A stretch of DNA of 64,000 nt from Saprospira grandis str. Lewin (GCF_000250635.1 NC_016940.1:1160995-1224994); one strand, 5' to 3'; positions 3,476-58,189 are shown, numbered from the stretch's first letter. Translations and numbers: made by a program. The notes: generated by a model not told the origin, from the letters alone.

Positions 3476-3640
3476 GTTTTTTTCTTTTTTGGGGCTGCCC
3501 CGCCCTGCGGGCGGGTCGGGCTGTATCGCAGCTCGCAGCTCTGCTCGGCCCTGCAGGCTTTTTCGCTTCGCTTCAAAAGCCTTGGGTCTGCCGCCTTGCG
3601 GCGGCCCTGCTTTCCATCCCTCAGCCGGGGCAGTTTTCTT
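3476..3640. repeat. REP-like mosaic element, archetypal full copy (forward)
   Basis: T-run, GGGGCTGCCCCGCCCTGCGGGCGGGTCGGGCTG, GCTCGCAGCTCTGCTCGGCCCTGC core, GGCG..CGCC hairpin, TTCCATCCCTCAGCC module. Confidence 0.85.
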
Positions 3641-6829: not shown

Positions 6830-6985
6830 GCCTAGAGGAGCGAAGCGACTGGCCCAGCGCTGCGGAGGGGTGGCCGAAGGCCAGACCCAAGCCGCCGCAG
6901 GCGGCTGCAGGGCCGAACAGACCTGTGAGCCCCGCAGCATAGCGGCGGCCGAACTAGGCGAAGCCTAGCCGGCCGCGGGCCCCAA
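6830..6985. repeat. REP-like mosaic element (reverse)
   Basis: gcagggccgaacagacctgtgagccccgcagcatagcggcggcc..; 3' module near-identical to 60285-60345. Confidence 0.8.
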
Positions 6986-7018
6986 AGCATAAAAAAATAA
7001 CCAACCCTAATGCTAGAG
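6981..7018 (-). terminator. rho-independent terminator of metK
   Basis: aataaccaac..gttggttatt 10-bp stem; A-run on + strand = T-run on - strand. Confidence 0.65.
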
Positions 7019-8310: not shown

Positions 8311-8682
8311 TATTTCTCGCTAATTTAAAGTTGTTCAAAAAATATGCAAAGGGCCAAATTTGTCTTTTGGGCGGCCTTCGCTTCATAAATGCAGCAAAGA
8401 TATAAATTTCTGCAAAGGAAGTTAAGCCCGCCCCTATTTTGCTAGAAAAAAAGCTGAGGAACAAGCGCCAAGCAATCAAAAATCAAAGGCCCGAGCAAAA
8501 CAAGCCTCGGCCCAGTTTATTTCTTCCTGCTCAAAATGACTAAATTCTTTTCCTTACAGCCGCAGGCCCCCGAAAAACAGTTATCCTTGATGAATATTGC
8601 ATAGAAAACAGCTTGTTTTATGAAAATTGCATACGATTTAAGGCTTAAGTTGTAAAACACTATCATTCGTTTCTTTTTTTGG

Positions 8683-8995
8683 GGCTGCCCCGGCCATAGG
8701 CCGGGTCGGGCTGTGTCGTGGCTCGCAGGTCTGCTCGGCCCTGCGGCGCAAAGCGCCTTGGTCTGCGGCTGCGCCGCCCCACTTTCCATCCCTCAGCCGA
8801 TGCAGGCCAGGGCCTGCATAAAAGCGGCAGGCTATCGCCTATTTAATGTAAAGCGGGCCAGGGCCCGCTTTGAATTGGACCAATTTGGCCCAGGCAGCCC
8901 GAGGGATTCCGCAAGGAATCCCGCAGAGGGGTGGCTGGGCGGGTCATCAGTACGGATGAGGAGCGAAGCGAGGAATACCGCTTTGGGCCAACCAA
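8683..8995. repeat. composite REP-like element: forward core copy plus palindromic module B (GGATTCC..GGAATCCC)
   Basis: ggggctgcccc..gctcgcaggtctgctcggccctgc..ttccatccctcagcc then gggattccgcaaggaatcccgcagaggggtggctgggcggg..gatgaggagcgaagcgaggaataccgc. Confidence 0.8.
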
Positions 8996-9423: not shown

Positions 9424-9592
9424 GGTCCAAGGAGGCGGCGAAGCCGCCGAAAAGGCGCGCAGCGCCTCGGCTGAGGGGCTGTAGCAGGGCCGCCAAAGGC
9501 GGCAGACCAAAGCGCTGAAAGCGCTGCAGGGCCGAGCAGACCTGCGAGCTGCGCAATGGCCCGACCCAGCCGAAGGCTGGGGCAGCCCCAAA
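9424..9592. repeat. REP-like mosaic element (reverse)
   Basis: ggctgagggg..gcagggccgagcagacctgcgagctgcg..ggggcagcccc. Confidence 0.8.
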
Positions 9593-15580: not shown

Positions 15581-16293
15581 TCCTCCTCGCTCTAGGAACC
15601 ATTATCCTAGGGACCCTCCTCGGCCTGCTCTTTTTCTTCCTCCGCATTCACCTCAAAAGAATTAAGGCCGCCGAAGAAGAAAAACACCGCCTCGAGATTA
15701 ACCACCAAAAAGCCTTGGCCTCAGCTACTGTAGAGATTCAGGAAAGAGAACGCGCCCGTATCGCAGAAGAATTGCATGACGATCTTATCGCCCAACTTTA
15801 CCGAATTAAGCTCTCTAACTTTAATCCACAAATCAACCAGATGCTCAAAATGAGTATCCAAAAGGCCCGCGGCCTCTCTCACGATCTTAGCCCCCCTATG
15901 ATTGATCAGGTAAATATGGAAACGATTCTGCTCGATTTTATCGAGCCCTTTCGACAAAAGTATCAAATTCAATCTAATCTCAATGATGGCAATAATAAAG
16001 AACTGCCCAAGGAGGCGAAGCTCCAACTCTTCCGCATTTTTCAAGAACTCATTACCAATATAGATAAACATGCCGCGGCTAAGCAGATAGATATTTATTA
16101 CCGCTATCGCCATAATTATTTGGCCCTCCTCCTCCGCGATGATGGCCTAGGCTTTAAGGCCGAACAACAAAATGGCCTGGGCCTAAAGAATATTGCCATG
16201 CGCAGCCAAATCCTAGACGGTCAATTTAAGTTTAAACCCAATTCTCCAAACGGAACTACTTTTACTTTCCTACATTATGAGCCAAACAACTAA
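15547..16293 (+). CDS. sensor histidine kinase (HisKA_3/NarX-DegS-type H-box)
   Basis: one TM helix then RERARIAEELHDDL H-box; C-terminal ATPase region with NGLGLKNIAMR G-box. Confidence 0.75.
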   Translation: MGPQQNASTVLILLALGTIILGTLLGLLFFFLRIHLKRIKAAEEEKHRLEINHQKALASATVEIQERERARIAEELHDDLIAQLYRIKLSNFNPQINQMLKMSIQKARGLSHDLSPPMIDQVNMETILLDFIEPFRQKYQIQSNLNDGNNKELPKEAKLQLFRIFQELITNIDKHAAAKQIDIYYRYRHNYLALLLRDDGLGFKAEQQNGLGLKNIAMRSQILDGQFKFKPNSPNGTTFTFLHYEPNN

Positions 16294-16972
16294 GATTAAG
16301 ATCGCCATTACCGACGACGACTCTCTGGTGGTCCAACTACTTACCGAATACCTAGAGAAGTTCTCTCCCCTTCCCTGCCAGGTGGTCCTCCAAGCCTATA
16401 GCGGCCAAGAGTTTATAGAAAAGACCAAGCTCCCTAGCTTCCAAGAGGTCGATATTATCTTGCTCGATATGCGAATGAAGGAAGGAGACGGCCTTTGGGT
16501 GCTCAATGAATTGAGTAAGCAGTCTTTTTCGGCCAAGATTATTGTGCTCACTTCTTACTATAAAACGGCCTACATTGGCCAGATGATGAGCCTTGGAGCC
16601 CATGCTTTTTTGCCCAAAGAGATTGATAAGGAGCAATTAGTGGAAATCATCCAGGAGGTCCAGCAAAAAGGCCACTATTTTAGCAGCGAGCAGATGCAGT
16701 CGCTCCGCTCGCAAATTACGGCCAAATCGCCTAAGTTACAGCTCGATCCCAGTAGCCAGATTAGTCCCCGAGAACTAGAGGTGCTCCAACTGATTGCCCA
16801 GCAATATACCAATAAGGAGATTGCCGAAAAGCTCTGCCTGACGGTCAAGACCATTGAGGCCCATAAAAGTAATTTGCTGGCCAAAACGGGCTCTAAGAAT
16901 GCGGTGGGCCTAGTGGTCTATGCTATAGAACAGGGCCTGATTAAGGCCAGCGATTGTATCCGCCTCAACTAA
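16277..16972 (+). CDS. LuxR/NarL-family response regulator
   Basis: receiver IKIAITDDD..ILLDMRM; C-terminal HTH SPRELEVLQLIAQQYTNKEIAEKLCLTVKTIEAHKSNLLAKTG; 17-nt overlap with kinase. Confidence 0.85.
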   Translation: MSQTTKIKIAITDDDSLVVQLLTEYLEKFSPLPCQVVLQAYSGQEFIEKTKLPSFQEVDIILLDMRMKEGDGLWVLNELSKQSFSAKIIVLTSYYKTAYIGQMMSLGAHAFLPKEIDKEQLVEIIQEVQQKGHYFSSEQMQSLRSQITAKSPKLQLDPSSQISPRELEVLQLIAQQYTNKEIAEKLCLTVKTIEAHKSNLLAKTGSKNAVGLVVYAIEQGLIKASDCIRLN

Positions 16973-16989
16973 TTTTTTTTGGTCTTTTT

Positions 16990-17570
16990 GACCTTTGTTT
17001 TTTCTTTTTTCCTTTTGGGGCCCGCGGCCCAGGCAGGCCTAGGGCCTGCCTGGGCCGCCGCTATGCTGCGCGGCTCGCTGTTACTTGCTTCGCTGCGTCG
17101 GCTCCCGTTGGTCGGGTCGCTCGGCCCATCGCTTTTTCGCTTTGCTCAAAAGCTCGGTCTGGCCTGCGGCCACCGCTGCGCAGCGCTGGGCCGCTCGGCC
17201 TCTTAGCTTGGCCAGTTCTTTCTGCTGCGGCCCCCTTGGCCCCTCCTTTTAAATGGTATTCGTCGCTGCGCTCCTCATCCGTCTATATGTCCCCGCCCAC
17301 CCACCCCTCTACGGGATTCCCTAAGGAATCCCTCGGGATGGCTGGACCAACTCCTACACCTCCTCGCCCACTAAATAGGCGGCTTCGCCGCCTCTGGCCC
17401 AAAGGGACAGAACGGCCTAGTGATGCGGCGGGGTGGCCCAAAGGGCCAGACCCAGGCGGCGCAGCCGCCGCAGGGCCGAGCAGACCTGCGAGCCCCAAAG
17501 CGTAACGGCGCAAGGCGAAGCCGCAGCGCAGGCCCCAACTCCTCCCCTCAGAAAAATAGCGGAAATAAAA
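16990..17570. repeat. ~580-bp composite of REP-like modules: two core copies in opposite orientation flanking a reverse module B
   Basis: ggggcccgcggccc.. at left, module B reverse at 17256-17332, gcagggccgagcagacctgcgagcccc core reverse at ~17480; track ORFs 16954..17505 and 17283..17663 are repeat artefacts. Confidence 0.8.
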
Positions 17571-17587
17571 CACAAAACCTCTAGCCC

Positions 17588-18718
17588 CTAGCGCCCAACA
17601 TAAGCCCCCAGCGCCTCCAACAAAGCCGAAATATCCCCCAAATCCATATCCGCCCGCAGGCAAATGCGCAGGCGCTCCTGCCCCCTAGGCACCGTAGGGT
17701 ATCGAATGGGACGCAAATCAAAACCCTGCCCCTCCAAATGCTCCGAAAGGGCCAAAACCTCCCGATTTCCTGGCCAAAAAATAGCCTGAATCGGTCCCTG
17801 ATTGGCCGTCAAAATAGTCGAAAGGGCCAGTTTTTCCCTTAAGGCCAAATAATGGGCTAAACGCTGCTGCAGTTCGGCCCGCAGCCGCGCCCCCTCCCGC
17901 TCCAAATAGCGATAAACCAAGCGCAAATGCCCAATCTGAGGCAATGACATGGCCGTACTATAGATCAAAGGACGGGCAAAATTGATGAGATACTGCCGCA
18001 GGGTCGAGCTGCCCAAAATCACCGCCCCATGGCTGCCCACCGCCTTGCCAAAGGTATGCAGACGGGCAAAAATGCGCTGGCTCAGGCCTAATTCCTGAAC
18101 CAAACCGCCCCCATTTGGACCAAAACAGGCCGTCGCATGCGCCTCATCGACCAAAAGGGCCGCCCCATAACGCTCCGCCAAATCGGCCAAGGCCCCCAAA
18201 GGCGCCCGATCGCCATCCATGGAATAAAGCGACTCCACCCAAATGTAGCGCAGCCCCTTGGGCGCAAGCGCCAACTGCCTCTCCAAATCCTGCAAATCAT
18301 TGTGCGCAAAGGCAAAAGCCTGCCCCTTGGCCAGCTTTAGGGCATCATGCAAACTCGCATGGGCCAAGGCATCATAATATAAGGTATCGCCCCGCTGCAA
18401 AAGGGCCGAAACCAAGCCCAAATTGCCCAGATAACCCGTGTTAAACAGCAAAGCCGTTTCCGCCTCATGGAATTGGGCCAACTGCTGCTCCAACTCCAGC
18501 ATAGCAGGATGATGGCCCGAAAGCAAGCGGGAACCCGTGGCCCCCATTTGCTCATATTTTTCTTGCCCCAACTGCAAAAGGAGCTCCCGATTCCTAGCCA
18601 AGCCCAAATAGTCATTCGAGCTAAAGCTAATGAGCTCTGGCCGATGGCGCAAACTGCGTTGCATCCCCCGCTTCGCATAGGCCGCAAGACGCTCTTGCAG
18701 CCGTTCTTCATGCTTCAT
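17588..18718 (-). CDS. 8-amino-7-oxononanoate synthase family PLP-dependent acyltransferase (BioF/Kbl/SPT-like)
   Basis: 376 aa; HTFGKAVGSHGAVILGS lysine-PLP region; class-II aminotransferase fold; markedly GC- and Ala/Leu/Arg-rich relative to neighbours. Confidence 0.75.
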   Translation of the reverse strand: MKHEERLQERLAAYAKRGMQRSLRHRPELISFSSNDYLGLARNRELLLQLGQEKYEQMGATGSRLLSGHHPAMLELEQQLAQFHEAETALLFNTGYLGNLGLVSALLQRGDTLYYDALAHASLHDALKLAKGQAFAFAHNDLQDLERQLALAPKGLRYIWVESLYSMDGDRAPLGALADLAERYGAALLVDEAHATACFGPNGGGLVQELGLSQRIFARLHTFGKAVGSHGAVILGSSTLRQYLINFARPLIYSTAMSLPQIGHLRLVYRYLEREGARLRAELQQRLAHYLALREKLALSTILTANQGPIQAIFWPGNREVLALSEHLEGQGFDLRPIRYPTVPRGQERLRICLRADMDLGDISALLEALGAYVGR

Positions 18719-18721
18719 GAC

Positions 18722-21052
18722 TTACTCAATTCTGGCTACCGTATTGACCGCATCCAAGTTCTTAATCGACATAATAATCTGCTTGAGCTGGTCCTTATTT
18801 TGCACCATCAAACTAATCCGTCCTTCAAAATGACCCTCTAGGCCCTCCATAGAAAATGAACGCATATTGACGCCCAACTCATTGGTAATGATGTTAGACA
18901 ACTGCTGCACCACCCCCATATCATCCATGCCCGTAATCAAGAGATCGGCCACAAAAGAGGTTTCGCCAGACTCTACCCATTCCGCCTTTTTTATCCGATA
19001 GCCATAAGTGGCCTGCATATGCTCGGCATTGGGGCAGGTGGTCCGATGAATTTTTAAGCCATGCTTAGAGGTCACATAAGCAAAAATATCATCGCCCATA
19101 ACGGGATTGCAGCAGGTGGCCAAGGAGTAGGTATAATTGCTGGCATCTTCGCCATCTACCATCAATTTGGGCTTCTTAAACTGCTTGCGACTGGCCAAGG
19201 GACGTAATTTGGGGCCCTTGGGCTTTTCTATCTGTGCAATTTCCTCCTTAGGCGTATCGGCCAACTCTGGGAACAGCTTTCCCTGCTCCTGCCGCAAGAG
19301 CTTAATCTCATTTAAGTTGTACTGCCCCTGATAAATCCCATAATAAAGAGCGGGGCGATTCTCTAGGCCATAGTATTTGACCAGTACGTCTATATTCTCA
19401 TCGGCATCTAGCTTGAGGGTTTTTAGTTTGCGCTCTAGGGTTTCTTTGCCCAGGGCGCCCAACTTCATACGCTCCTCACGGAGCGCCTGACGGATCTTAT
19501 GTCGAGCCCGTCCAGTCTCCACCATCTTCAACCAACCCTTTGAGGGCTTTTGGTTGGGACTGGTCACCACCCTCAATTGGTCGCCATTTCGGAGGCGATA
19601 GCTAAGAGGAACAATCTTTTCGGCCACCTTGACCGCCTTACAATGATAGCCCACCTCCGAGTGAATATCAAAGGCAAAATCTAGGGCCGTGGCTCCTTTA
19701 GGGAAAAAGCGGAGGTCTCCCTTGGGCGTAAATACATAAACCTCCTCGGCAAAAAGGTTTGACTTAAAGCTGTTTAGAAACTCAATGGCATTGGTTTCTG
19801 GATTCTCTAACATTTCTCGGGCTTTGGTCAGCCAGCGTTCAAAGGTACTGCTTTGGCTGGATTTAACGCCCTTGTATTTCCAGTGTGCCGCAAAGCCCAT
19901 TTCGGCAATTTCATCCATGCGCTCCGAGCGAATTTGCACCTCGACAAAGCGGCCCTTGGGCCCCATAACTGTCGTATGCAAAGATTCATAGCCATTGGTC
20001 TTTGGCATAGATACCCAATCTTTTAGGCGTTCGGGCACGGGGGTATAGTAATCGGTAATGATAGAATAGACATTCCAACAGGCGGCCTTTTCTCTTTCAA
20101 TGGGTAAATCTAAAACAATCCGAATAGCAAAGAAATCATATATCTCCTCAAAGGCCAGTTGCTTCTTCTTGAGTTTGTTGTTAATGGAAGAAATGGATTT
20201 GGCTCGGCCAAAGATGCGGGCCTTATAGCCTGCAGCTTCTACAGCCTTGCGCACGGGAGCAATAAAATCTTCAATATAAGCCTCTCGCTCGTCCTTCGTT
20301 TCTTGTAATTTCTTGACAATGTCTTGGTACTCTGTAGGCTCGATGATCTTCATGACCAAATCTTCCATTTCCGTCTTTATGGAGTAGAAACCCAGACGGT
20401 GGGCCAAAGGCGCATAGATATAAGAGGTTTCTGAAGCAATCTTTAGCTGCTTATGATGAGGCATAGAGCCTAGGGTCCGCATATTATGTAGGCGGTCCGC
20501 CATCTTAATGAGCACCACCCGCACATCCTTGGCAATGGTCAAGAGGATCTTTTTAAAGTTTTCGGCCTGTGGGCTACTCATCTTATCGCCCTGTACATTA
20601 TTGGCATTGGCAATACCCGAAAACTTAGTCAGGCCATCTACAATAGAACTTACCTTTTGGCCAAACAATAACCGAATTTGGGCTAAATTAACCTCCGTAT
20701 CTTCTACCACATCATGCATAAGGGCCGCTTTGATAGAGCGAGGGGCCAAGCCTAACTCATCGGCACAAATACGGGCTACCTCTATGGGATGCAGAATATA
20801 AGGCTCTCCTGACTTTCGTCTTTGGCCCGCATGCGCCCGAAAAGCTAAAGTAAAAGCCAGACGCATTTCTCTTTCTTCCTCTGGCGGATAATCCATCCGC
20901 AGGCTGCCTAACAAATGCTCAAAGGCCGCATAGACTTCTTTTTCTTCATCGGCATTGAGATCGGTGGTTGGGTCTGGCAAATTTAAAGGCGCCAGCTTTT
21001 CTTCTATATAGTCTACCATAGTCTTATTCTTTTTATACAGGGCCCTACTCAT
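18722..21052 (-). CDS. relA: bifunctional (p)ppGpp synthetase/hydrolase RelA/SpoT-family
   Basis: 776 aa; HD hydrolase motif HDVVEDT, RelA/SpoT synthetase region, C-terminal TGS and ACT regions. Confidence 0.9.
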   Translation of the reverse strand: MSRALYKKNKTMVDYIEEKLAPLNLPDPTTDLNADEEKEVYAAFEHLLGSLRMDYPPEEEREMRLAFTLAFRAHAGQRRKSGEPYILHPIEVARICADELGLAPRSIKAALMHDVVEDTEVNLAQIRLLFGQKVSSIVDGLTKFSGIANANNVQGDKMSSPQAENFKKILLTIAKDVRVVLIKMADRLHNMRTLGSMPHHKQLKIASETSYIYAPLAHRLGFYSIKTEMEDLVMKIIEPTEYQDIVKKLQETKDEREAYIEDFIAPVRKAVEAAGYKARIFGRAKSISSINNKLKKKQLAFEEIYDFFAIRIVLDLPIEREKAACWNVYSIITDYYTPVPERLKDWVSMPKTNGYESLHTTVMGPKGRFVEVQIRSERMDEIAEMGFAAHWKYKGVKSSQSSTFERWLTKAREMLENPETNAIEFLNSFKSNLFAEEVYVFTPKGDLRFFPKGATALDFAFDIHSEVGYHCKAVKVAEKIVPLSYRLRNGDQLRVVTSPNQKPSKGWLKMVETGRARHKIRQALREERMKLGALGKETLERKLKTLKLDADENIDVLVKYYGLENRPALYYGIYQGQYNLNEIKLLRQEQGKLFPELADTPKEEIAQIEKPKGPKLRPLASRKQFKKPKLMVDGEDASNYTYSLATCCNPVMGDDIFAYVTSKHGLKIHRTTCPNAEHMQATYGYRIKKAEWVESGETSFVADLLITGMDDMGVVQQLSNIITNELGVNMRSFSMEGLEGHFEGRISLMVQNKDQLKQIIMSIKNLDAVNTVARIE

Positions 21053-21368
21053 CCAAAAATTTGATCCTCGGCCACCGCTTGCTCTTTTGCTTTCTTCTTT
21101 TAATAGAAAATCATTCTATTACAGAAAAAAATGCCCCTGCCCTAGCCCATAGGCTAAGCAGAGCACAACAACAAAAAAGAAATTTAGAGAGAAGCCCTTG
21201 CTTTTCCAAACTTTTTTAAGCTATTGTCTGCATCACTATATATTATATGTATAAAAGAAATAGGAAGCACTGCTTTTTTGCCCCTAAGTCAATTGATGAA
21301 TAAAGCAGAAAGCTCTTTTTATCAGCGGACTAGCATCCCTTAGGCTAAAAACAAGGCGCCAGAGGCCT

Positions 21369-21665
21369 CTGGATTGTTACATTTAACCGTGGGGATTCCC
21401 CACAGCCATCTGGATTGTTACATTTAACCGTGGGGATTCCCCACAGCCATCTGGATCGTTACATTTAACCGTGGGGATTCCCCACAGCCATCTGGATCGT
21501 TACATTTAACCGTGGGGATTCCCCACAGCCATCTGGATTGTTACATTTAACCGTGGGGATTCCCCACAGCCATCTGGATTGTTACATTTAGCCGTGGGGA
21601 TTCCCCACAGCCATCTGGATCGTTACATTTAGCCGTGGGGATTCCCCACAGCCATCTGGATCCTT
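21369..21665. repeat. tandem array, 41-bp unit x ~7.2, each unit containing palindrome GTGGGGA-T-TCCCCAC
   Basis: ctggattgttacatttaaccgtggggattccccacagccat repeated head-to-tail with point variants (gattg/gatcg, aacc/agcc) in AT-rich intergenic region. Confidence 0.95.
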
Positions 21666-21841
21666 AGATCATTATCTATAGTCTACACTTCCGTAACGAC
21701 CACAAAAACAGCCTTAATTTTTCTACGTAAACAACAAAAGTTAAAAAAGTTGTGTTTTTTTCTGCAAAAGACTTGACCTTATAAAATCGTTTACCTATAT
21801 TTATAACGTCAACTAATTAGTAAACTAATAAACGCAATCCA

Positions 21842-22825
21842 ATGGTAGAAACTACTGGCTGGATCAAGACGGAAAACTTCGTCTATACGACCACCAAAGA
21901 AAACAAAAAGAAGATGTACCTTTTAGCGAAGGATCATGTTCACAAATTGACAGAAAAAGCGAGCAGCGATCCTGTCATTCAAGACATCTTGAACTTTATT
22001 CTTCCTGCCTATGAGGACTTTCTTCTTCAGTATCGTAAGAATACGGTAGAGAGAAGAGACTATCAGCAGAAAACAGCAACATTTAAGTCCCTGATTGCTC
22101 AATTGTCTGGCGTTGAAATTCGCCGCTGGGATGTTGAAATTCAGATGACCTATGATATTGTTACCAATGATTACCGTCTATTTCTTCCCTACGGACGAGA
22201 GCCCTTCCAAAAAGGGACCTATGATATGCGCATTGAGGCAGTCATGACCTTGGGAGATTTGTTGAGCGCCGATCCGCAGCTTCAGGGCTTGGGGGCTCGT
22301 GTACTTGCCTTTGGCCAGCAGCTAGATGATCTTCGTGGCCAGCAGCAGGGAGTAGAAGGTAATAACGATGACAATGTAGATGATTTGGAAGCCAAGCGTG
22401 AAGAGCTCGCTATTATACTTTATGGTGCTTTTGCTCGCCTATTGGCCCATTATTATCGTACGCCCAAGCGGGTAGATAACTTTTATGAGCTCAAGTATTT
22501 CCGCCGCAGCCGAAATAGCAGCCCAGAGCAAGAAGAAGAAAACGACAACTTTAGCAACTTTGAAGTGGCCCTAAGTCCTGGCAGCAGCCAGCAGCAACTA
22601 GAGGGCCTACTTATTGGTGGCGAGCGCTTGCGTTTGCAGCATATTAGCGGAGAGCCCGTCTTGTACTACTTCTTGGTTAATTCTAGCGATAGCCCAGGCC
22701 AACAGTATGAGTTGCAGCCCAACCAAAGCGTTGAAGTGATTGTCCCGCTTGGCCATCGTCTTATTGTGCTAGAGAATCCTAGCCGCCAAGACAGCCTTGT
22801 CGAGATTGAGCTACTGCCTAGCTAG
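21842..22825 (+). CDS. hypothetical protein (327 aa) in AT-rich island
   Basis: long ORF, no domain recognised; followed by hairpin terminator. Confidence 0.5.
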   Translation: MVETTGWIKTENFVYTTTKENKKKMYLLAKDHVHKLTEKASSDPVIQDILNFILPAYEDFLLQYRKNTVERRDYQQKTATFKSLIAQLSGVEIRRWDVEIQMTYDIVTNDYRLFLPYGREPFQKGTYDMRIEAVMTLGDLLSADPQLQGLGARVLAFGQQLDDLRGQQQGVEGNNDDNVDDLEAKREELAIILYGAFARLLAHYYRTPKRVDNFYELKYFRRSRNSSPEQEEENDNFSNFEVALSPGSSQQQLEGLLIGGERLRLQHISGEPVLYYFLVNSSDSPGQQYELQPNQSVEVIVPLGHRLIVLENPSRQDSLVEIELLPS

Positions 22826-22840
22826 ACTTAGCAACAGAAC

Positions 22841-22870
22841 AGCCATCCAAGACTATGGATGGCTTTTTCT
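22841..22870 (+). terminator. rho-independent terminator
   Basis: agccatcc-aagactat-ggatggct stem plus TTTTT. Confidence 0.7.
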
Positions 22871-22901
22871 TTGTTTGGGTCTTTGGCCCAAGAGCTGGCC
22901 C

Positions 22902-22939
22902 AAAAAGAAAGCGGCCTAGGAGAAATTCTCCTAGGCCGC
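22902..22939 (-). terminator. rho-independent terminator of sppA
   Basis: gcggcctaggaga-aat-tctcctaggccgc 13-bp stem; A-rich on + = T-rich on -. Confidence 0.65.
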
Positions 22940-22961
22940 TACTTATTATGGTCCTATTGCC

Positions 22962-24776
22962 TTAATCTAGCTTTAATTCAAAAGGCAGGCGCATTTGTGG
23001 TCCTTGCATGCTTCGCAAGTCTTTCACCTGCTTCATCCAGATCAAAAGCTCGGGATCTAGATCTTGAAGCAATTGATTTTTCTGCCATTCGCTGGGCGAG
23101 AAATCAACTTTTTTGCCTCCTGTCAAGCTTTCCATCAGCTCTTCTTCAAAGTTTTTGATCTTGGGGTAATGCACGGCATCATAGCTTTCGCCCAAATTGG
23201 CCAAGGCGGCAGCTTCTGTAATAGCGGCATCTAGGCCCGCAAGGCTATCGACCAATCCAATTTCTAGAGCGGCAGTGCCCAGCCATACACGGCCCTGAGC
23301 AATGCTATCTACATGGGCGCGCTTGAGGCCACGGCCCTCGCTCACTCGGTTTTTGAACAAGTCGTAAATCTCCTCAATAGATTGGGTAATGATGGCCCCC
23401 TCCTCTTCATTGAAGGCGTAATATTGGCCCATATCCCGACTCATGATTGAGAACTTGCCCGTTTTTACAGTATCCATGCTCAAGCCCAATTTCTCTTCAT
23501 AGAGGCCGCGCATATTGGGGATCATACCGAATACCCCAATTGAACCCGTAATGGTATTGCTTTCGGCAAAGATTTTATCCGAGTTAGAAGCAATATAATA
23601 GCCGCCCGAAGCCGCTACATCTCCCATAGAGGTCACTACCTTAATGCCCTGTTCTTTGGCCAACTCAATTTCTCTCCAGATGACCTCAGAGGCAAAGGCA
23701 GAGCCCCCACCAGAATTTACTCGCAAAACAATGGCTTTCACCTTATCATCTTCACGGATTTCGCGGATGGTGCGAGCATAGAACTCGCCCCCAATACTCC
23801 CGCGATCGCCTTCGCCATCAACGATGCTTCCTTCTGCAAAGATGACGGCTACCTTATCCGAGCCCGCAGAGCGTTCCCGCAAGGCCTTTTTCTTCACATC
23901 ATAGTAGCCAGAAAGCCCCACAAACTTCAGTTTGGCCTTTTTGTCATCCTGAATCCCGACTAGCTCACGCAACTCCTTAATGACTTCATCCTTATACTTC
24001 AGGGCATCTACCATACCGTATTGTAGGGCCGCATTGGCATTGCGAATCTTAGCCTGATTGGCCAATTGGTATAGACTATCGGCAGAGATGCCACGGCTCT
24101 CGCCAATGACCTCCAAATACTGCATATAGGCCCCATTGAGGTACTCCCGCACTTGCTTGCGGTTGGCCTCGCTCATATCCGTTCTGCGGAAAGGCTCGGT
24201 AGCGCTCTTAAATTTTCCTGCATAGTAGATCTGTGCTTTTACACCCAGCTTATCCATTAGGCCCTTATAGTACATAATTTGGCCCCCAAAGCCCATGAAA
24301 TCAATACCGCCCATAGGGTGCAAATACAACTTATCTGCGGCAGAGGCTAGGTAGTAAGTAGACTGCGAATAGCTATTGGCATAACCCAAGACAAACTTCC
24401 CTGAGGCCTGAAAATCGGCTAGGGCTTCGCGGACCTTTTTCATGCTAGCAAAACCACCGGGGCTGCTCTTGGGAGAAAGGTAAATCCCCTTGATATTGGG
24501 GTCCTCCTTGGCCATGGCAATCAACTGCAAAAGGTCGGCTAGACCTACATTCTCGGCAAAGAGGCTTTCTAGGTCGGTGGCCCCACTTTTGTCCAAATTA
24601 TTGCTCAATTCTGGAACAGCGGCCCCAAAATCTAGCTTCAAGATGCTGTTTTCCTCTACCTCAGGATCGCCGGGCTGGTTGAGCAGCACAATAGTCATAA
24701 TAATAGCCCCCAAACCAAAGAGACCGACAATGGTCCCGAAGCAGGAAGCAAAAAACTCACGGATAAAATTCTTCAT
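22962..24776 (-). CDS. sppA: signal peptide peptidase SppA (67K type, tandem S49 domains)
   Basis: 604 aa; N-terminal TM; two ClpP-fold S49 regions (VAASGGYYIASN, SGGGSAFASE). Confidence 0.85.
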   Translation of the reverse strand: MKNFIREFFASCFGTIVGLFGLGAIIMTIVLLNQPGDPEVEENSILKLDFGAAVPELSNNLDKSGATDLESLFAENVGLADLLQLIAMAKEDPNIKGIYLSPKSSPGGFASMKKVREALADFQASGKFVLGYANSYSQSTYYLASAADKLYLHPMGGIDFMGFGGQIMYYKGLMDKLGVKAQIYYAGKFKSATEPFRRTDMSEANRKQVREYLNGAYMQYLEVIGESRGISADSLYQLANQAKIRNANAALQYGMVDALKYKDEVIKELRELVGIQDDKKAKLKFVGLSGYYDVKKKALRERSAGSDKVAVIFAEGSIVDGEGDRGSIGGEFYARTIREIREDDKVKAIVLRVNSGGGSAFASEVIWREIELAKEQGIKVVTSMGDVAASGGYYIASNSDKIFAESNTITGSIGVFGMIPNMRGLYEEKLGLSMDTVKTGKFSIMSRDMGQYYAFNEEEGAIITQSIEEIYDLFKNRVSEGRGLKRAHVDSIAQGRVWLGTAALEIGLVDSLAGLDAAITEAAALANLGESYDAVHYPKIKNFEEELMESLTGGKKVDFSPSEWQKNQLLQDLDPELLIWMKQVKDLRSMQGPQMRLPFELKLD

Positions 24777-24811
24777 AGATGATTGATTTATTAGATATGT
24801 TCTTTTTCTGA

Positions 24812-25040
24812 TGATTTGGGGCTGCCCCGCCCTGCGGGCGGGTCGGGCTGTCTCGCAGCTCGCTGTTCGCTCGGCCCTGCGCGGGCTGCGCCCGCTGGGT
24901 CTGGCCTTCGGCCACTGCTGCCCATCCCTCAGCCTCTGCGGCTAAAGCCGCAGCCAAGCGGCATAGCGCTTTGCGCTATTGGCTAAGATGGCGGGCTGGG
25001 GCCCGCCATATCGGCGGCTTCGCCGCCTCTTTGGACCAAA
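24812..25040. repeat. REP-like mosaic element (forward) with extra 3' hairpin modules
   Basis: ttggggctgccccgccctgcgggcgggtcgggctgtctcgcagctcgctgttcgctcggccctgc..cccatccctcagcc. Confidence 0.85.
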
Positions 25041-25144
25041 AAGGCCGCCTTGCTCAATTCATTAGAGAAAATAGTCAAAGTTTTTGGGACAAAAAAAGGG
25101 CTGCCCCTAAAAGTCGACAGCCCCACAGATATTTCGGACAAAAC

Positions 25145-25921
25145 TTAGTGCCCTTTAAAATTGGGCGCACGTTTCTCCAAGAAAGCCGAGGCCCCTTCCT
25201 TAAAGTCTTCGGTATTCACGGCATTGGCAAACTCGATTACTTCTTTCTCGAAGCCGCCCTTGCTAAAGTGGCTATTGACACATTCGATCACTTTTTGGAT
25301 AGCGATAGGGGCTTTAGTAGCAATCTTCTCTAGGAGTTCTTTGGCCTTAGCGACCTCCTCTCCTGCGGGCGTGACATAATTCAGCAAGCCGAGGCGGTAA
25401 GCCTCTTCGGCCTTAATCATATCGCCGGTCATGAGTAATTCGATGGCTTTGGTTTTGCCCAAGTATTGGATCAAGCGTTGGGTTCCGCCATAGCCGGGGA
25501 TAATGCCCAGATTTACCTCGGGTTGGCCAAAGCGGGCCTTCTCGCTAGCTACACGAAGGTGGCAAGCCATGGCCAGCTCACAGCCACCGCCCAAGGCAAA
25601 ACCATTGATCGCAGCGACAACAGGAACCTTAAACTCTTCAATCAAAAAGAAAATATCTTGGCCATGTTGGGCCATCTCCAAACCAGCCTGAGCGTCTAGT
25701 CCAGTAAACTCGCTAATATCGGCACCGGCCACAAAAGACTTGGGGCCTGCTCCAGTAAGGACCACCCCTTTAAGGCCTTCTACGGCTAGGGCATCTTGGC
25801 CAAAAAACTGCTTGAGCTCCTTCAAAGTTTGTTGATTGAGGGCATTGAGCGCTTTAGGGCGATTGATAGTTAGTGTAATGATGCCGTTTTCTTCAACGGC
25901 CAAAAGATTCTGATAAGTCAT
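25145..25921 (-). CDS. enoyl-CoA hydratase/isomerase (crotonase family)
   Basis: MTYQNLLAVEENGIITLTINRPKALNALN, AAINGFALGGGCELAMACH; the track ORF (to 26299) runs upstream into a REP element, so trimmed to ATG 25921. Confidence 0.85.
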   Translation of the reverse strand: MTYQNLLAVEENGIITLTINRPKALNALNQQTLKELKQFFGQDALAVEGLKGVVLTGAGPKSFVAGADISEFTGLDAQAGLEMAQHGQDIFFLIEEFKVPVVAAINGFALGGGCELAMACHLRVASEKARFGQPEVNLGIIPGYGGTQRLIQYLGKTKAIELLMTGDMIKAEEAYRLGLLNYVTPAGEEVAKAKELLEKIATKAPIAIQKVIECVNSHFSKGGFEKEVIEFANAVNTEDFKEGASAFLEKRAPNFKGH

Positions 25922-25957
25922 AATGATATCTGATTGATCAAATGGATGTTTTTCTAT

Positions 25958-26112
25958 TGTGCTGCGTCTAGAGGCGGGCGCAGCCCGCCGGCCTAGCGAT
26001 GGTAGGCAGTGCGGCGCAGCCGCAGACCCAGGCGCTGAAAGCGCCGCAGGGCCGAGCGAATAGCGAGCTGCCGAACGTAGCGCCGACGAGCGAAGCGAGG
26101 CGGAGGCCCCAA
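25958..26112. repeat. REP-like mosaic element (reverse)
   Basis: gcagggccgagcgaatagcgagctgccgaacgtagcgccg..gaggcggaggcccc. Confidence 0.75.
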
Positions 26113-26120
26113 ACAGAAGG

Positions 26121-28526
26121 CTATCGCTTTCTTTGCCAGAACAGCAAGCCCCCAAAGATAAGAAAGCCGAGCAAACTCCCCAAGAGGGCGGGCTGCCAAT
26201 AAGGGGGGGAAAACTGCAATTCGATTTGGTGCTGGCCTGCAGGCAGCGGAAGGGCCATAAAACCCAGTTGGGCCCGATAAATCGGCTGCGCCTCCCCATT
26301 GACCAAAAGTTGCCAATTTGGATCGAAGGGAATAGAGAGGAAGAGGGCTGCGGGCTGCTCTAAGGCTATTTCGCCTTGGAGCTGCTTTTGGCCCAACTTG
26401 CTCCAGCGAACGACTTGGCGACTTCGGTTGGCGACATCTTGGCCCAGCTCATTTGGGCCATAAGCCTGAGGGTTGAGATTATTCAAGGGGTTGTCCTGCA
26501 GAGCAGTAAAAGCCCCTAGATCCTCTTGGGCCAGCACCAAAGTTTTGAGCAAAGCCATCTGTTGTCTAATTGATTGATTATCCTTGGGCAGGGCCTCCCA
26601 TTGCTTTTCCGAGCATTTTGTATCGTAAGTGAAGCCTAGGGGAAGAAACATACTATTCTTCCAAATCTTGACGGCCCCCACACTATCTTGCAAAACATAA
26701 AAGAAAGGATTGAGGGGTTCCTTAGCCAGCCAATACTTGCTGCTAGCTAGGACCTGCAAAAGGGGCCGTTGGCGAATGCCGGGGGCCCAGCGGGTTTGGT
26801 TTTCGTCCTGGGGATCAATCACTGCAGTTTTGGCCAAAAAGCGGATATAATTCTTTTGGTTGAAAGAGTGATAAGAGGAGGAGCCCTTGAAGTTTTGGAC
26901 CTTGGCATCATTGAGGCCATTGTGCATAGCGGGGCTAGAACTATACATCTTCTCTATGCGATAAAAGCCAGAGTCTTGGGCTTCAATTTTGGCCAAAGCG
27001 GTCATGCTCTCATCTTGGTAGCCTATATTTTTGGACCATTCTTCTTTGCTGATCATTTGGCGGTCGCTGCTATAGACCTGCTTAGCCGAGAAAATCAGCT
27101 CCGCCAAAAAGAGCAGGGCCAGAAAACCAAAGGCCTGCAAGCGATATTTTTCAACGGCTAGGGCCGCAATGGCTAGCGCGCTCCCCAGCAAAAAGATAAA
27201 GAGCAAATTCTGCAAAGGCTGATCGACCTCTACCTCTTTGGCCGATAGAAAAGGAACATAGAGCAGAGCCGCCCAAAAGACCAGGCTAAAAATGAGCAGC
27301 CAAATATTGGGTTTGGCTCCCTGCAACAGCTTAGAGAGTCCCTTTAGGGCCAAAAGCAGCAAGCCCGTGGCCACAAAAAGCGAGTAAATGCGGTAATAAT
27401 TTCCTGCGTACAGCCAAATGCTATATCGGAAAAAGGGAATAAAAAGCGGGAGCAAGAGTAAAATCAAGGCGGCCAAGCTCAGGTAGCGTTGCTTGCCCTT
27501 TTGGAAAAAGAGCGCTTGGGGCAAAAGCAAGAGCAAAGGGAGAGCGATATAGAGACTAGGGGCCTCTAGGTAATTATTCCAACCCTTATAGGCCAGAACA
27601 TTTTGGCCATTGGGCAACTGCTCATAGGCAGCCCCAAAGAAAAAGTTGGGAGAAAAGAGTCGGCCAAGGATCGTTAGGGCCTCTGCCTTTTGGGTACTGC
27701 CGAGGCCTTCCTGCATCAATTGGGCAAAAAAGGCGGATTCTCCGCCCACACGGGGGCTGTTGAGAATTTGGTCAATAGTACTAATTAGGAGGACCGAGCT
27801 CATGAGTAGGCCAACCGCTCCCCAGATCATTAGCCAGAGGTAGAGTTGGATAATGGCTTTTTTATCTTTCTCCCCCAACTCCAAGAGGCGAAAAACGCTA
27901 TAAACGCCTACAAAGAGGCCAATAATATAGAGATCTACCGGCATATTGAGGGCCAAGAAAAAGACCGAAAGGCCGAAAGTCTCTCCTTTTTGTTTGGCCA
28001 GTAGGCGCTCAAAGCCCCAGAGGCAAAGCGCCATAAAAACGGCTTGAGTGCTGAAGACATACCAGCCTGCGCCAATGAGCAGAAAGCCAGAGAAAGCGAA
28101 GGCTAGTCCCCCCGCCATTTGGGCCAGGGGCGCCAGCTGTCTATAGCCTAAAAAGCGAAAGAAAAAGAAAGCCGCCAAAAGCAGCTTGAGTGCTTCCATC
28201 CAAGCGATGCCATAGGCCAGTTGTTTTGGGCCGAGGAGATAGAGCGGCCATTGGAAGGGGTCGCCTAGGCTAAGGGGGAGAATATTTTGTCCCATTCCTT
28301 GTTGGAAAGACCAAGTAGGGAGTCCCTCTTTTTGGAGGTAGTCTGCTACATGATGGAGTTGGGGATAAAACACATTGAGCGTATCGCTTCCAATATCTTT
28401 AAAGAGAAAGAGGTCTGGGCCAAAGAGAAAAGCGCTAAAGGCCAGCAGAAGCAAGATAGTCGTCAGGCCCAAAAAGATATAGGTTTTATGGGGCAGCCAT
28501 TTTTGGGGAATAAGCGAAGAGGACAT
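26121..28526 (-). CDS. YfhO-family polytopic membrane protein
   Basis: 801 aa; N-terminus ..FKDIGSDTLNVFYPQLHHVADYL.. typical YfhO; many TM helices then C-terminal soluble domain. Confidence 0.7.
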   Translation of the reverse strand: MSSSLIPQKWLPHKTYIFLGLTTILLLLAFSAFLFGPDLFLFKDIGSDTLNVFYPQLHHVADYLQKEGLPTWSFQQGMGQNILPLSLGDPFQWPLYLLGPKQLAYGIAWMEALKLLLAAFFFFRFLGYRQLAPLAQMAGGLAFAFSGFLLIGAGWYVFSTQAVFMALCLWGFERLLAKQKGETFGLSVFFLALNMPVDLYIIGLFVGVYSVFRLLELGEKDKKAIIQLYLWLMIWGAVGLLMSSVLLISTIDQILNSPRVGGESAFFAQLMQEGLGSTQKAEALTILGRLFSPNFFFGAAYEQLPNGQNVLAYKGWNNYLEAPSLYIALPLLLLLPQALFFQKGKQRYLSLAALILLLLPLFIPFFRYSIWLYAGNYYRIYSLFVATGLLLLALKGLSKLLQGAKPNIWLLIFSLVFWAALLYVPFLSAKEVEVDQPLQNLLFIFLLGSALAIAALAVEKYRLQAFGFLALLFLAELIFSAKQVYSSDRQMISKEEWSKNIGYQDESMTALAKIEAQDSGFYRIEKMYSSSPAMHNGLNDAKVQNFKGSSSYHSFNQKNYIRFLAKTAVIDPQDENQTRWAPGIRQRPLLQVLASSKYWLAKEPLNPFFYVLQDSVGAVKIWKNSMFLPLGFTYDTKCSEKQWEALPKDNQSIRQQMALLKTLVLAQEDLGAFTALQDNPLNNLNPQAYGPNELGQDVANRSRQVVRWSKLGQKQLQGEIALEQPAALFLSIPFDPNWQLLVNGEAQPIYRAQLGFMALPLPAGQHQIELQFSPPYWQPALLGSLLGFLIFGGLLFWQRKR

Positions 28527-31589: not shown

Positions 31590-31750
31590 GTTTAGGGAGG
31601 GCCGAAGGCCCGACGGCTGAGGGATGGAAAAGGGGGGCCGAAGGCCAGACCAAGCAAAACGAGCGCTAGCGAAGTTTTGCGAAGGGCCGAGCAGACTTGC
31701 GAGCCCTGACACAGCCCGACCCGACCAAAGGGAGGGGCAGCCCCAAAACA
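31590..31750. repeat. REP-like mosaic element (reverse)
   Basis: ggctgagggatggaa..gaagggccgagcagacttgcgagccctgacacagcccgacccgacc..ggggcagcccc. Confidence 0.85.
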
Positions 31751-32944: not shown

Positions 32945-33185
32945 TTACTGTTTTTTGGGGCTGCCCCTTCCGCCGGGTTAAAACCCAGCGCAAAGCGGCA
33001 TCGCTTTGCGAGCTTATACAAAATGAGGGTTAAAACCCTCATGAATTATCGGCCGGGTCGGGCTGTGTCGTGGCTCGCAGGTCTGCTCGGCCCTGCGGGG
33101 CTTTCGCTTCGCTTCAGCCCCTGGGTCTGCGGCTTCGCCGCACCACTTTCCATCCCTCAGCCTGCGGCCCTTCGGGCCTGTAGGA
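32945..33185. repeat. REP-like mosaic element (forward) with ~80-bp internal insertion
   Basis: ttggggctgcccc..[insert gggttaaaaccc..gagggttaaaaccctc]..cgggtcgggctgtgtcgtggctcgcaggtctgctcggccctgc..ttccatccctcagcc. Confidence 0.8.
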
Positions 33186-35821: not shown

Positions 35822-35960
35822 GGCCCGAAGGGCCGCAGGCCTAGCGATGTGGAGGGGTGGCCGAAGGCCAGACCGAGGAGCGGAGCGACGAAGGGCCGAG
35901 CAGACCTGCGAGCCCCGCAACGTAGCGCCGCAAGGCGAAGCCGCAGCGGAGGCCCCAAAG
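35822..35960. repeat. REP-like mosaic element (reverse)
   Basis: gaagggccgagcagacctgcgagccccgcaacgtagcgccgcaaggcgaagccgcagcggaggcccc. Confidence 0.8.
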
Positions 35961-36012
35961 CATCCCAATAAACACAAAAAAAAAGCTGAATAACTCTAAA
36001 GTTATTCAGCTT

Positions 36013-38060: not shown

Positions 38061-38094
38061 CCGAGGGGGAGCCATTATTTTTTTGTTGATTTTT

Positions 38095-38415
38095 TTGGGG
38101 CCTCCGCAGCAAAGCTGCGGCGCTACGTTTCGGGGCTCGCAGGTCTGCTCGGCCCTGCGGCCTGACGGCCTTGGTCTGCGGCTTCGCCGCCCCCCTACAC
38201 ATCGCTAGGCCATGAACGAGCGCAGCCAGCTGCGCCCAGCAGGCGGCAAAGCCGCCGCAAAGGCGCGAAGCGCCTCGGCTGAGGGATGGATAGGGGGGCC
38301 CGCAGGGCCAGACCCAAGTTTTTTGAAGCGAAGCGAAAAAAACTGCAGGGCCGAGCAGACCTGCGAGCCCGGCACAGCCCGACCCAAGGCCGTAGGCCGC
38401 AGGGGCAGCCCCAAA
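38095..38415. repeat. inverted pair of REP-like elements
   Basis: forward partial copy 38095-38200 (gctcgcaggtctgctcggccctgc) and reverse full copy 38205-38415 (ggctgagggatgga..gcagggccgagcagacctgcgagccc..ggggcagcccc). Confidence 0.85.
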
Positions 38416-39119: not shown

Positions 39120-39253
39120 GCACTGTCCCGTCCTGAAAAACTGATACAGAATTTAAAGCAATAAAATTCTGATTAAATACGGGTGAAAAGTTATTCTGGA
39201 AGATTTTGACCTCCTTCAAAAAGGTCAAAAAATCTTACGGAAATAACTTGTTG

Positions 39254-40118
39254 TCAATTTAACAACTCTGGCTTAAGATGATCTTGGGCTAGAGTTGTTT
39301 TCTTTTTATAGCTCTTATATTCGAGCTCTTGTTGTTGGTGCATTTCAGCAGGCGGCATAAATTGACAAGACCAATGTGGCCGCGCTTGGTTGTAAATATC
39401 AATACTTTGAGCCACTATTTTCTTCATCGCATCTAGCCCTAAATGGAAAAAATCTGCAATAAACTCTTGCTTTAATATTCCATTTATTCGCTCTGCTACG
39501 GCATTTGCATAAGGGTCATAAGACTCAGTCATAGAGCAACTTATGCCTAGCTCTTTGAGTACTTGCTGATAATCATTTGAGCAGTACTGAATGCCCCGAT
39601 CAGAATGATGAATCAGCTCTTCGTTAGGATATAGACGACGCTTTGCAGCCTGTTTTAAGGCTCGAATAGAGCCAATACTGCTCAAGCTGTCAGAGACATC
39701 ATATCCCATTATTTGCTTAGAATAAGCGTCTGTGACCAAGGCTAAATACATTGGATTTTCTCTCGTTCCAATGTAAGTAATATCTGAAACCCCAGACTTG
39801 CTCTGGCCGATAAATTTTCAAATCAGCTATCTTGTTCTTATGCTTTCTGTAGTGGTGGAAGGAATTTGTCGTTGTATGATAGTTCTTTCGAGGTCGAACT
39901 AGCAGATTGTTGGCCCGCAAAATAGTAAAAAACTTATCTCGGCCTACTCGCAGAGCCTTCAACTCAGATTGAAGTAAATGGTACAATTTGCGGCCTCCTA
40001 AGCGAGGCATTTTGTTCCGTACTTCTTGAACTAAGGCAACTACTTTTTCTGCCAAACCCTGATTAGATCTATGTTTCGCCTTCGATCTATAGTACTGCTG
40101 ACGATTTATCCCGACCAA
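39254..40118 (-). pseudogene. IS3-family transposase OrfB (DDE/rve) disrupted by 1-bp frameshift
   Basis: split into 133-aa and 165-aa ORFs; cccc at ~39785 vs ccc in intact copy (47640); also one a/t substitution (M vs L). Confidence 0.8.
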
Positions 40119-46824: not shown

Positions 46825-46965
46825 TTTGGGGCCTCCGCCTCGCTTCGCTCGTCGGCGCTACGTTTCAGGGCTCGCAGGTCTGCTCGGCCCTTCGCCAGCT
46901 TCGCTGGCTCGGTCTGGCCTACGGCCACCCTTGCACATCGCTAGGCCTGCGGCCCTTCGGGCCTG
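46825..46965. repeat. REP-like mosaic element (forward, partial module set)
   Basis: ggggcctccgcctcgcttcgctcgtcggcgctacgtttcagggctcgcaggtctgctcggccc..ggtctggcctacggccacc..catcgctaggcc. Confidence 0.8.
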
Positions 46966-47107
46966 CTATCCGTAGCTTGTCCCGTCCTGAAAAACTGATA
47001 CAGAATTTAAAGCAATAAAATTCTGATTAAATACGGGTGAAAAGTTATTCTGGAAGATTTTGACCTCCTTCAAAAAGGTCAAAAAATCTTACGGAAATAA
47101 CTTGTTG

Positions 47108-48600: not shown

Positions 48601-48675
48601 GCCCCAATTGTTAGGGAATTGTTAAAAATGAAAATAATGTAACAAAATCAAAAAGGGGGAAAGTTCGGTATTTTA

Positions 48676-49130: not shown

Positions 49131-49204
49131 GGGACTGTTCAGGATTTTGTGTATCCAGATAGGCAACAAAAAGGGCAAGCAAAAAATGTTAAACAAAAAA
49201 GCCC

Positions 49205-58154: not shown

Positions 58155-58189
58155 GATAAGAACTTCTCCTTAATAGGCCAAGTTTTTCC

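Follow-up and report, generated by a model that had tools for sequence, protein, structure and literature searches.

An array of 41-bp repeats in Saprospira grandis is very probably one half of a gene-plus-repeat module

We analyzed a tandem repeat array in a window of Saprospira grandis DNA (the whole stretch analyzed, 64,000 nucleotides). We conclude with high confidence that the array is half of a self-contained module made up of a 41- or 42-bp repeat array, a conserved promoter and a gene for a protein of ~320-340 aa. This module is inherited and relocated as one piece and is unrelated to relA, plasmids or partition. The conserved presence, side and period of the array, its paralogue-specific unit and the selection on its linker show, at the level of comparative sequence analysis, that the array is a functional partner inherited along with the gene. 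The first-pass annotation of this DNA had treated the flanking genes as scenery; the array is in fact linked to the downstream gene in every relative examined.

Tandem Repeats Finder placed the array at 21368-21661, with a period of 41, 7.2 copies, 98% matches and no indels. Read directly in register, seven full 41-bp units lie head to tail at 21369-21655. An eighth unit begins after 21655 and decays beyond CTGGATC into unrelated sequence; the unit listing and an 8-locus alignment assign this degenerate unit (CTGGATCCTTAGATCATTATC...) to 21656-21696. Only positions 7 (T/C) and 18 (A/G) vary among the units of the window. Seven direct repeats with two variable positions, phased at about four helical turns, are what the first-pass annotation had described, and it was also right that this is not a CRISPR, since the units abut without spacers and just 2/41 positions vary. 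Its AT-rich island is modest: GC content is 0.40 at 21001-22000, within a range of 0.37-0.60 (mostly 0.44-0.50) elsewhere in the window.

Each unit contains a linker, which is the conserved part (unit 1: CTGGATYGTTACATTTRRC, 21369-21387, plus strand), and the palindrome GTGGGGA-T-TCCCCAC (unit 1: 21389-21403), and both recur every 41 bp. The 7+7 inverted repeat noted earlier is present, but pairing reaches further than that, through G-U pairs, to an 11-bp stem on the minus strand (about 21384-21408 in unit 1). At the far end of the array, a terminator scan identified a remnant half-unit (21345-21372, minus strand) as a weak terminator-like hairpin, CCAGAGGCCTCTGG followed by a T-run. This hairpin is kept in S. 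grandis DSM 2844 and missing from the syntenic locus L083, and its role is uncertain. (W denotes the window array and DSM the DSM 2844 locus, L002; other L-numbers are fetched loci.) The orthologous DSM 2844 array (L002 5387-5694) was scored at 7.5 copies by Tandem Repeats Finder, and repeat number agrees between the strains, with seven full units in each.

The unit is confined to the array. Within the 64-kb window, GTGGGGATTCCCCAC occurs in 7 exact copies, all in the array, versus 0.07 expected in shuffles, and neither the 20-nt linker nor the palindrome, for which copies elsewhere had been proposed as a check, was found outside it. The exact 21-mer CCGTGGGGATTCCCCACAGCC gave 0 matches in genome-contig and metagenome-contig collections. 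We therefore rejected a dispersed repeat on the basis of the 21-mer and window searches; REP/BIME elements, in contrast, have many dispersed intergenic copies. A coding repeat was also rejected because a 41-bp period cannot hold frame and there is no ORF of at least 60 aa in 21053-21841. ORFs called over the 42-bp arrays of other loci are spurious, with 2-3 of 6 frames open on both strands. Rfam returned nothing at the gathering threshold, and only miRNA-like hairpin noise below it (E up to 10).

The 790-bp intergenic region around the array separates two divergent genes. The first is a RelA/SpoT gene (18722-21052, minus strand; domains HD_4, RelA_SpoT, TGS and ACT), whose product is 98% identical to RelA of DSM 2844, which places the window in the chromosome of another S. 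grandis strain. The second is the 327-aa gene (21842-22825, plus strand), and 181 bp separate the array end from its ATG. The neighbours are housekeeping genes: an aminotransferase, a two-component system, SppA, enoyl-CoA hydratase, YfhO, ExbBD and DnaJ. This chromosomal context is conserved in other Saprospira, with synteny to L083. Following the suggestion that plasmid or ICE-like genes might lie nearby, we searched ~10 kb on either side and found no rep, par, relaxase or integrase gene. No DnaA box (≤1 mismatch) occurs in 15831-28359 and cumulative GC skew does not turn at the array, and we rejected a replication origin on these two grounds. Mobile DNA in the window is limited to two copies of an IS3-type element, more than 17 kb from the array. 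Its two IS3-family (rve) transposase segments, 39124-40087 and 46978-47940 (~960 bp each), are virtually identical (99-100% identity over two 300-nt stretches compared), and the ORF is shorter in the first copy (165 aa vs 287 aa).

This setting bears on the reading suggested by the first-pass annotation, in which the array would be a set of iterons, a sopC-like plasmid or ICE partition site, or an operator array for a dimeric repressor reading the 15-bp palindrome. Iteron origins carry phased direct repeats beside the gene for a ~300-aa cognate protein, and their repeats co-evolve with that protein. Iterons, however, are 17-22 bp long at ~22-bp spacing, whereas the period here is 41, and the other features of such origins (a winged-helix Rep or Rep_3 match, DnaA boxes, an AT-rich unwinding element) are missing from this chromosomal context. 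The resemblance to a partition site is closer in form: sopC of plasmid F is a set of 43-bp direct repeats, 12 in all, and SopB, encoded next to them, binds the inverted repeat of every copy (PMC3177203), and here too direct repeats about four helical turns apart each contain an inverted repeat. Unlike in sopC, the part of the unit that varies is the inverted repeat, and the stems of the DSM 2844 array do not carry the same motif in every repeat; palindrome sequence is thus unconserved even within one array. There is also no plasmid and no ParA/ParB (or ParM/ParR) partner, and the neighbouring protein lacks an HTH, RHH or ParB fold. With no plasmid or phage homologues of the gene and a housekeeping chromosomal location that is syntenic in another Saprospira, the iteron and partition-site readings are largely refuted, and we consider this whole group of explanations very improbable.

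We compared the loci of relatives of the 327-aa protein. An upstream array with a 41- or 42-bp period is present at 12 of 12 independent family loci, representing 12 inspected lineages out of a family of ~765 clusters. These arrays have 2.7-15 copies, always lie 5' of the gene, at 140-440 bp from the start codon. The loci come from Saprospira and from distant Bacteroidota-like genomes, cover protein identities down to ~25% and represent seven or more distinct gene neighbourhoods. The window and DSM 2844 arrays are each 41 bp x 7. The syntenic Saprospira contig L083, whose array recurs in L089, has 41 bp x 5.5 and a protein 80% identical to that of the window. In Saprospira sp. CCB-QB6 (CP116808; L082) the array is 41 bp x 2.7, the protein is 74% identical, and the module adjoins a type I restriction-modification system with no relA nearby. 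The L084 and L085 contigs (protein 73%) start inside the array. L086 (protein 69%), which adjoins cysS, carries a completely different unit at 41 bp x 9.9, and the same array in another sample (L090) is 41 bp x 14.9. Among proteins of 42-50% identity, the arrays are 41 bp x at least 3.9 (L091), 42 bp x 6.9 (L087) and 42 bp x 6.4 (L088). At 25-29% identity they are 42 bp x 5.7 (L092), x 4.8 (L094-96) and x 4.5 (L097/98); L092, L094 and L097 belong to AT-rich genomes and have type IX secretion neighbours. A further subfamily has 41 bp x 4.3 (L099) and x 6.3 (L100).

The boundaries of the module are indicated by the window and L082, which are not syntenic. Homology between them begins at the first array unit and ends ~100 nt before the stop codon, and these limits identify the array, promoter and gene as the inherited unit. 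We considered a mobile element with defined ends and rejected it: homology stops at the first unit and near the gene end, and no terminal repeats were found. In Saprospira sp. CCB-QB6, the module and an IS200-type Y1 transposase gene are bracketed by ~200-bp tandem repeats (L082 8757-9653 and 11530-12349, ~3-4 copies each). The Y1 transposase and ~200-bp repeats flank the module in this genome only; the L086 module has a further copy of this ~200-bp element on its upstream side.

The array is not tied to relA. Among 79 control relA loci from other Saprospiraceae (~0.95 Mb) we found 0 family genes and 0 arrays of 41-42 bp, and a relA-linked element was rejected on this basis. The sole control array of comparable period, in a Saprospiraceae MAG (L054 1960-2251, 40 bp x 7.2, 72% matches), is unrelated; it lies near relA in a locus without a homologue of the 327-aa protein. 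These controls also address the proposal that the array is either a neutral minisatellite (VNTR) located by chance in a large intergenic gap or a leader that regulates relA. Units that are 98% identical do suggest recent homogenisation, and copy number varies in related loci, as expected of a VNTR. Yet all 12 lineages have an array with a matching period beside the gene, even in unrelated neighbourhoods that lack relA, and the units show linker conservation and compensated stems. Relatives with only ~25% protein identity still share the presence of the array, its position and the 41-42-bp period, which refutes a neutral VNTR, and we give the combined proposal almost no credence. The array is very probably a recognition array rather than junk, as had been supposed.

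While the period stays at 41-42 bp, the sequence of the units turns over completely. Units are mostly unalignable between subfamilies, and paralogues within one genome or sample bear unrelated units (L082 vs L087 in Saprospira sp. CCB-QB6; L083 vs L086 in ERZ27248187), which argues for cognate specificity. A motif common to all arrays was rejected, as unit similarity is marginal beyond the S. grandis group, and a YGUAAR-like motif proved statistically indefensible. Copy number differs at near-identical loci (9.9 vs 14.9; 4.3 vs 6.3), with the reservation that several arrays come from short-read metagenome assemblies in which copy numbers may be collapsed or artefactual.

The gene downstream of the array encodes a protein with no match in Pfam, PHROGs, PADLOC or NCBIfam. 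A profile search recovered a family of 765 clusters at 50% identity, nearly all ~320 aa long. Saprospira sp. CCB-QB6 alone has three paralogues, all annotated as hypothetical. Searches of plasmid, phage and viral collections gave no homologues. It is an acidic protein (pI 5.0). An AlphaFold model built from 16 sequences (pLDDT 81.5) predicts a bundle of very long helices (residues ~13-212), a disordered acidic linker and a ~90-residue cupin-like/jelly-roll domain. No nucleic-acid-binding fold was recognised in the model, and no ToxN-like, HTH, RHH, ParB or winged-helix Rep fold. Contigs with family members often start or stop inside the array (L001, L084, L085, L091), and most are only 1-4 kb long.

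We examined the parts of the unit by comparing the window with DSM 2844, with units aligned in register. The linker part is 93% identical between the two strains, the flanking non-coding DNA 89-91% and the palindrome part 69%; the 327-aa gene is 96.7% identical in nucleotides. Within the linker, AAATGTAA is invariant in 16/16 distinct units (W, DSM, L082, L083 and L084 group), and among 100 loci this motif was found inside arrays only. The linker is, by these comparisons, under purifying selection within the Saprospira group. Its conservation relative to the flanks and the invariant AAATGTAA suggest that the unit is read in a sequence-specific manner.

The palindrome behaves differently. The hairpin part evolves ~3x faster than the flanking non-coding DNA, with pairing retained. 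The DSM 2844 array mixes three stems, CTCTGGCG/CGCCGGAG, CTCCGGGGA/TCCCCAGAG and a window-like type. The first-pass annotation had proposed the palindrome as a site for a dimeric DNA-binding protein, but it is the fastest-changing part of the unit (69% vs 93% for the linker) and its substitutions are compensatory. A single sequence-specific dimer would not give three stem types coexisting in one array. The palindrome, judging from its divergence, is not a fixed binding sequence.

Stem pairing was assessed with a covariation test on 16 distinct units of the S. grandis group. In the 11-bp minus-strand stem, 89% of cells are paired vs 79% in shuffles (0/500 reach the observed value), and pairing falls to 24-59% if the partner column is shifted by 1-3 positions. 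Four stem pairs are altered on both sides (G-C to C-G), although the independent events behind the covariation are few, about 2-4. Template-switch mutation at quasi-palindromes could symmetrise the stem arms without selection. Folding is also strand-biased. In the Saprospira group, 23 cells with G-U pairs favour the minus strand vs 6 for the plus strand, an asymmetry seen in the W, DSM, L082 and L086 arrays. Minus-strand folds of individual units have energies of -16.6 to -19.1 kcal/mol, plus-strand folds -10.5 to -12.7, and the array z-scores are -10.2 and -6.9, respectively. The better-folding strand varies across the family: it is the plus strand in L087, L091 and L088. L092 and L094 are among the arrays that fold weakly and have perfect palindromes with no loop instead; examples of such palindromes are TATGTACATA in L092 and TGCAGCTGCA in L088. 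In reverse orientation, the L088 unit is marginally similar to that of S. grandis.

The interval between array and gene contains a putative promoter. At 21773-21809 on the plus strand, TTGACC and TATATT are separated by 17 nt (alternatively TTG-N20-TATATTTA) and followed by TATAACGT. A consensus scan of 20900-22000 found this as the sole promoter-like site. The element occupies an equal position in L082, L083, L087, L088, L090 and L091. All Saprospira-type loci share a near-consensus TTGACA, 17 nt, TATACT/TATATT, which can also be read in the Bacteroidetes form TTG-N20-TAnnTTTA, again followed by TATAACGT; at the equivalent place in distant loci, TACATTGTATAT is common. Between array and promoter, the 8-locus alignment revealed conserved blocks at 21704-21754: AAAAACAGCCTTAA (21704-21717), TACGTAAAC (21724-21732) and TTAAAAAAGTTGTG (21741-21754). 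These blocks may be regulator sites or a minus-strand -7-like box; such a box, TGTTTTTG, at 21703-21710, is kept in W, DSM, L083 and L086. Sigma-70-type and Bacteroidetes-type consensus scans found no array promoter, on either strand, that was consistent across loci. Isolated candidates upstream of the array appeared in L083 and L092, and scans of this kind carry little weight in either direction. In the window, L082, L083 and L090, the interval from array to gene gave no plus-strand terminator-like site; all of these promoter and terminator calls are consensus matches only. A plus-strand terminator-like hairpin does lie between the relA start and the array, at 21189-21215 (GAGAAGCCCTTGCTTTTC then a T-run), and recurs at L083 5546-5572. 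No plus-strand gene precedes it whose transcript it could end, and it may be part of the relA promoter or leader.

We tentatively favour, at somewhat under even likelihood, a model in which the array is a phased, four-helical-turn set of cognate DNA sites that controls the gene's promoter in cis. One recognition site per 41-42 bp would place all sites on the same face of the helix, and the array lies 100-250 bp before the promoter. Cooperative loading of a co-evolving protein on the units would set promoter activity. The module's own product is the most economical candidate for this protein because no other gene is linked to the array. The conserved 16-19-bp linker (TTACATTT core in S. grandis) would provide the specific contact, and the adjacent palindrome would serve as a spacer, symmetric or prone to form structure, with little constraint on its sequence. 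Slippage or unequal recombination would alter the number of units and tune the dose. Since each period spans whole helical turns, adding or losing units would leave the helical phase between array and promoter unchanged. Comparable systems include ParR/parC and omega-type repeat operators, which lie upstream of their own operons; repeat operators can also autoregulate an adjacent promoter.

Several observations favour a role at the DNA level. The period stays at 41-42 down to ~25% protein identity, which is tighter than in type III antitoxin repeats. The array is upstream, not downstream, of the conserved promoter, and there are no consistent transcription signals for the array and no terminator between array and gene. 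The loop-less palindromes of some lineages suit dimer sites over hairpins, and strand and orientation look unfixed across the family, as far as the marginal reverse likeness of L088 indicates. Against phased DNA sites, the covarying stems, the three stem types per array and the minus-strand G-U bias fit an RNA or single-strand hairpin, and the protein is acidic, with no nucleic-acid-binding fold in its model.

We compared the module with known pairs of repeat arrays and proteins. In layout it is closest to type III toxin-antitoxin systems and in unit geometry to sopC, and it departs from both in their defining features. Type III loci (toxIN, cptIN, tenpIN) have cognate-specific repeats, are chromosomal, evolve fast and often occur in several divergent copies, and their antitoxin repeats are 31-62, 40-48 or 39-57 nt long depending on the family (PMC3401426). 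The array could be the RNA partner of the protein, as in a type III-like or other repeat-RNA/protein pair, which we regard as the main rival and a genuine but doubtful possibility. A region transcribed as a structured RNA is also what the first-pass annotation had named as refuting its own reading. In S. grandis, a minus-strand transcript divergent from the gene would form hairpin-plus-linker units. The 327-aa protein would bind these units and perhaps cut the transcript into 41-nt pieces, and the units would neutralise or guide the protein. An array beside a stand-alone cognate gene, with divergent copies per genome and fast co-evolving repeats, is a type III-like architecture (PMC3401426), and a tandem array in the 31-62-nt range upstream of a stand-alone protein gene was found at 12/12 family loci. 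The RNA explanation also accounts better for the compensated stems, for stem types that coexist in one array and for the G-U asymmetry: stems covary while the linker is conserved, and the hairpin evolves fast yet stays paired. The -7-like box at 21703-21710 and the terminator-like hairpin at 21372-21345 would make a plausible minus-strand transcription unit in W and DSM.

Other features distinguish the module from type III systems. Type III loci have a palindromic terminator between the repeats and the toxin gene, whereas here that interval holds a conserved promoter, the reverse of the type III layout. In type III loci a promoter upstream of the array drives array and gene together; here the consensus scans, which say little either way, gave no consistent site upstream of the arrays. 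The gap between array and gene is 140-440 bp instead of mostly 1-50 bp, copies number 2.7-15 instead of 1.9-5.6, and the period is fixed at 41-42 bp where that of type III families is variable. The 320-340-aa acidic protein, a helical bundle with a cupin-like domain, is twice the usual toxin size, is unrelated to ToxN/AbiQ, CptN and TenpN, and has no PADLOC match. For an RNA more generally, the -7-like box and end-hairpin signals are weak and not kept family-wide, no consistent array promoter or terminator was found, the better-folding strand flips among lineages (with L092 and L094 folding weakly), and Rfam gave no match. The hairpin-forming repeat, with its stem kept by compensatory change, is also reminiscent of CRISPR repeats, but there are no spacers, the whole 41 bp repeats, and no cas genes are present in the window regions scanned.

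The array might instead be a structural DNA element at the promoter that acts independently of sequence and has no dedicated binding protein. Negative supercoiling in the wake of a strong promoter would make phased palindromes or direct repeats extrude, slip or bend, and the element would serve as a topological buffer, an insulator or a copy-number contingency switch for expression. This would be consistent with a conserved period combined with free sequence, with the maintenance of the palindromes, with copy-number differences between near-identical loci and with the constant position upstream of a near-consensus promoter. Purifying selection on the linker, however, implies sequence-specific reading, and a purely structural role leaves unexplained why this gene family alone bears the element. 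Stems of 7-11 bp are also short for cruciform extrusion. We consider it unlikely that structure alone explains the array.

A broader proposal is that these loci represent a widespread two-part system: a family of at least 765 clusters at 50% identity, each member tied to its own fast co-evolving 41/42-nt hairpin array, with a mechanism that is neither type III, CRISPR-like, partition nor iteron. We offer this as a speculation that is more apt to be wrong than right. One possible form would be a scaffold, either repeat RNA or structured DNA, along which the protein would polymerise with a subunit every 41-42 nt. Cognate pairs of repeat arrays and proteins have repeatedly proved important, as in CRISPR, type III toxin-antitoxin and abortive infection systems, plasmid centromeres and iterons. 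The array described here, whose sole invariant is its 41-42-bp period, goes with an unannotated protein family that counts hundreds of clusters. If the array is read as DNA, Bacteroidota, where promoter biology is poorly known, would have a phased upstream control element of a new class; if it acts as RNA, it would form a new protein-RNA module with a toxin-unlike protein. A literature search for Saprospira tandem repeats, 41/42-bp bacterial repeats and Bacteroidetes repeat arrays found nothing relevant, and our analysis points to an undescribed gene-plus-repeat module. Short-read assemblies break at the arrays, so metagenomes strip the family of its context and hide the link between gene and array, and this may be why the family went unnoticed.

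Other repeats were noticed in the window. An abundant dispersed GC-rich mosaic repeat lies at gene ends, built from the modules GGGCCGAGCAGACCTGCGAGC, GGCCGAAGGCCAGACC, TTTGGGGCTGCCCC and CATCCCTCAGCC with variable GC hairpins between them. It occurs at 760-920, 3476-3631, 6846-6986, 8666-8803, 9503-9592, 17415-17560, 24803-24934, 31610-31747, 33022-33167, 35833-35980, 38084-38368, 46853-46964, 50595-50715, 55007-55103, 58182-58320, 60197-60346 and 62540-62685. This repeat looks REP/BIME-like and unrelated to the 41-bp unit. A 99-bp x 1.9 repeat (50677-50860) falls within it. The 384-aa enoyl-CoA hydratase ORF (25145-26299) crosses a dispersed GC repeat at 26023-26076 and overlaps the YfhO gene (26121-28526) by ~180 bp, both on the minus strand. 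Since the L083 orthologue is called at 258 aa, the true start probably lies well downstream. A 21-bp x 21.7 tandem repeat (48675-49130) fills a 169-aa ORF (48673-49182, minus strand) as a 7-residue coding repeat; the ORF has a weak grass antifreeze beta-roll match below the Pfam cut-off.

A second family of small hairpins with A/T loops is densely clustered upstream of several arrays, at L086 6060-6660, L087 5240-5470 and L088 940-1210, and only twice in the window, at 32975 and 33027. Its hairpin types (CTGTGGGTTTCAACCCACAG, TGAGGGTTGAAACCCTCA and GCTGCAGCTTAAAAGCCGCAGC) have stems that vary by compensatory change, and they resemble the S. grandis array hairpin in form (minus strand GGCTGTGGGGAATCCCCACGG).
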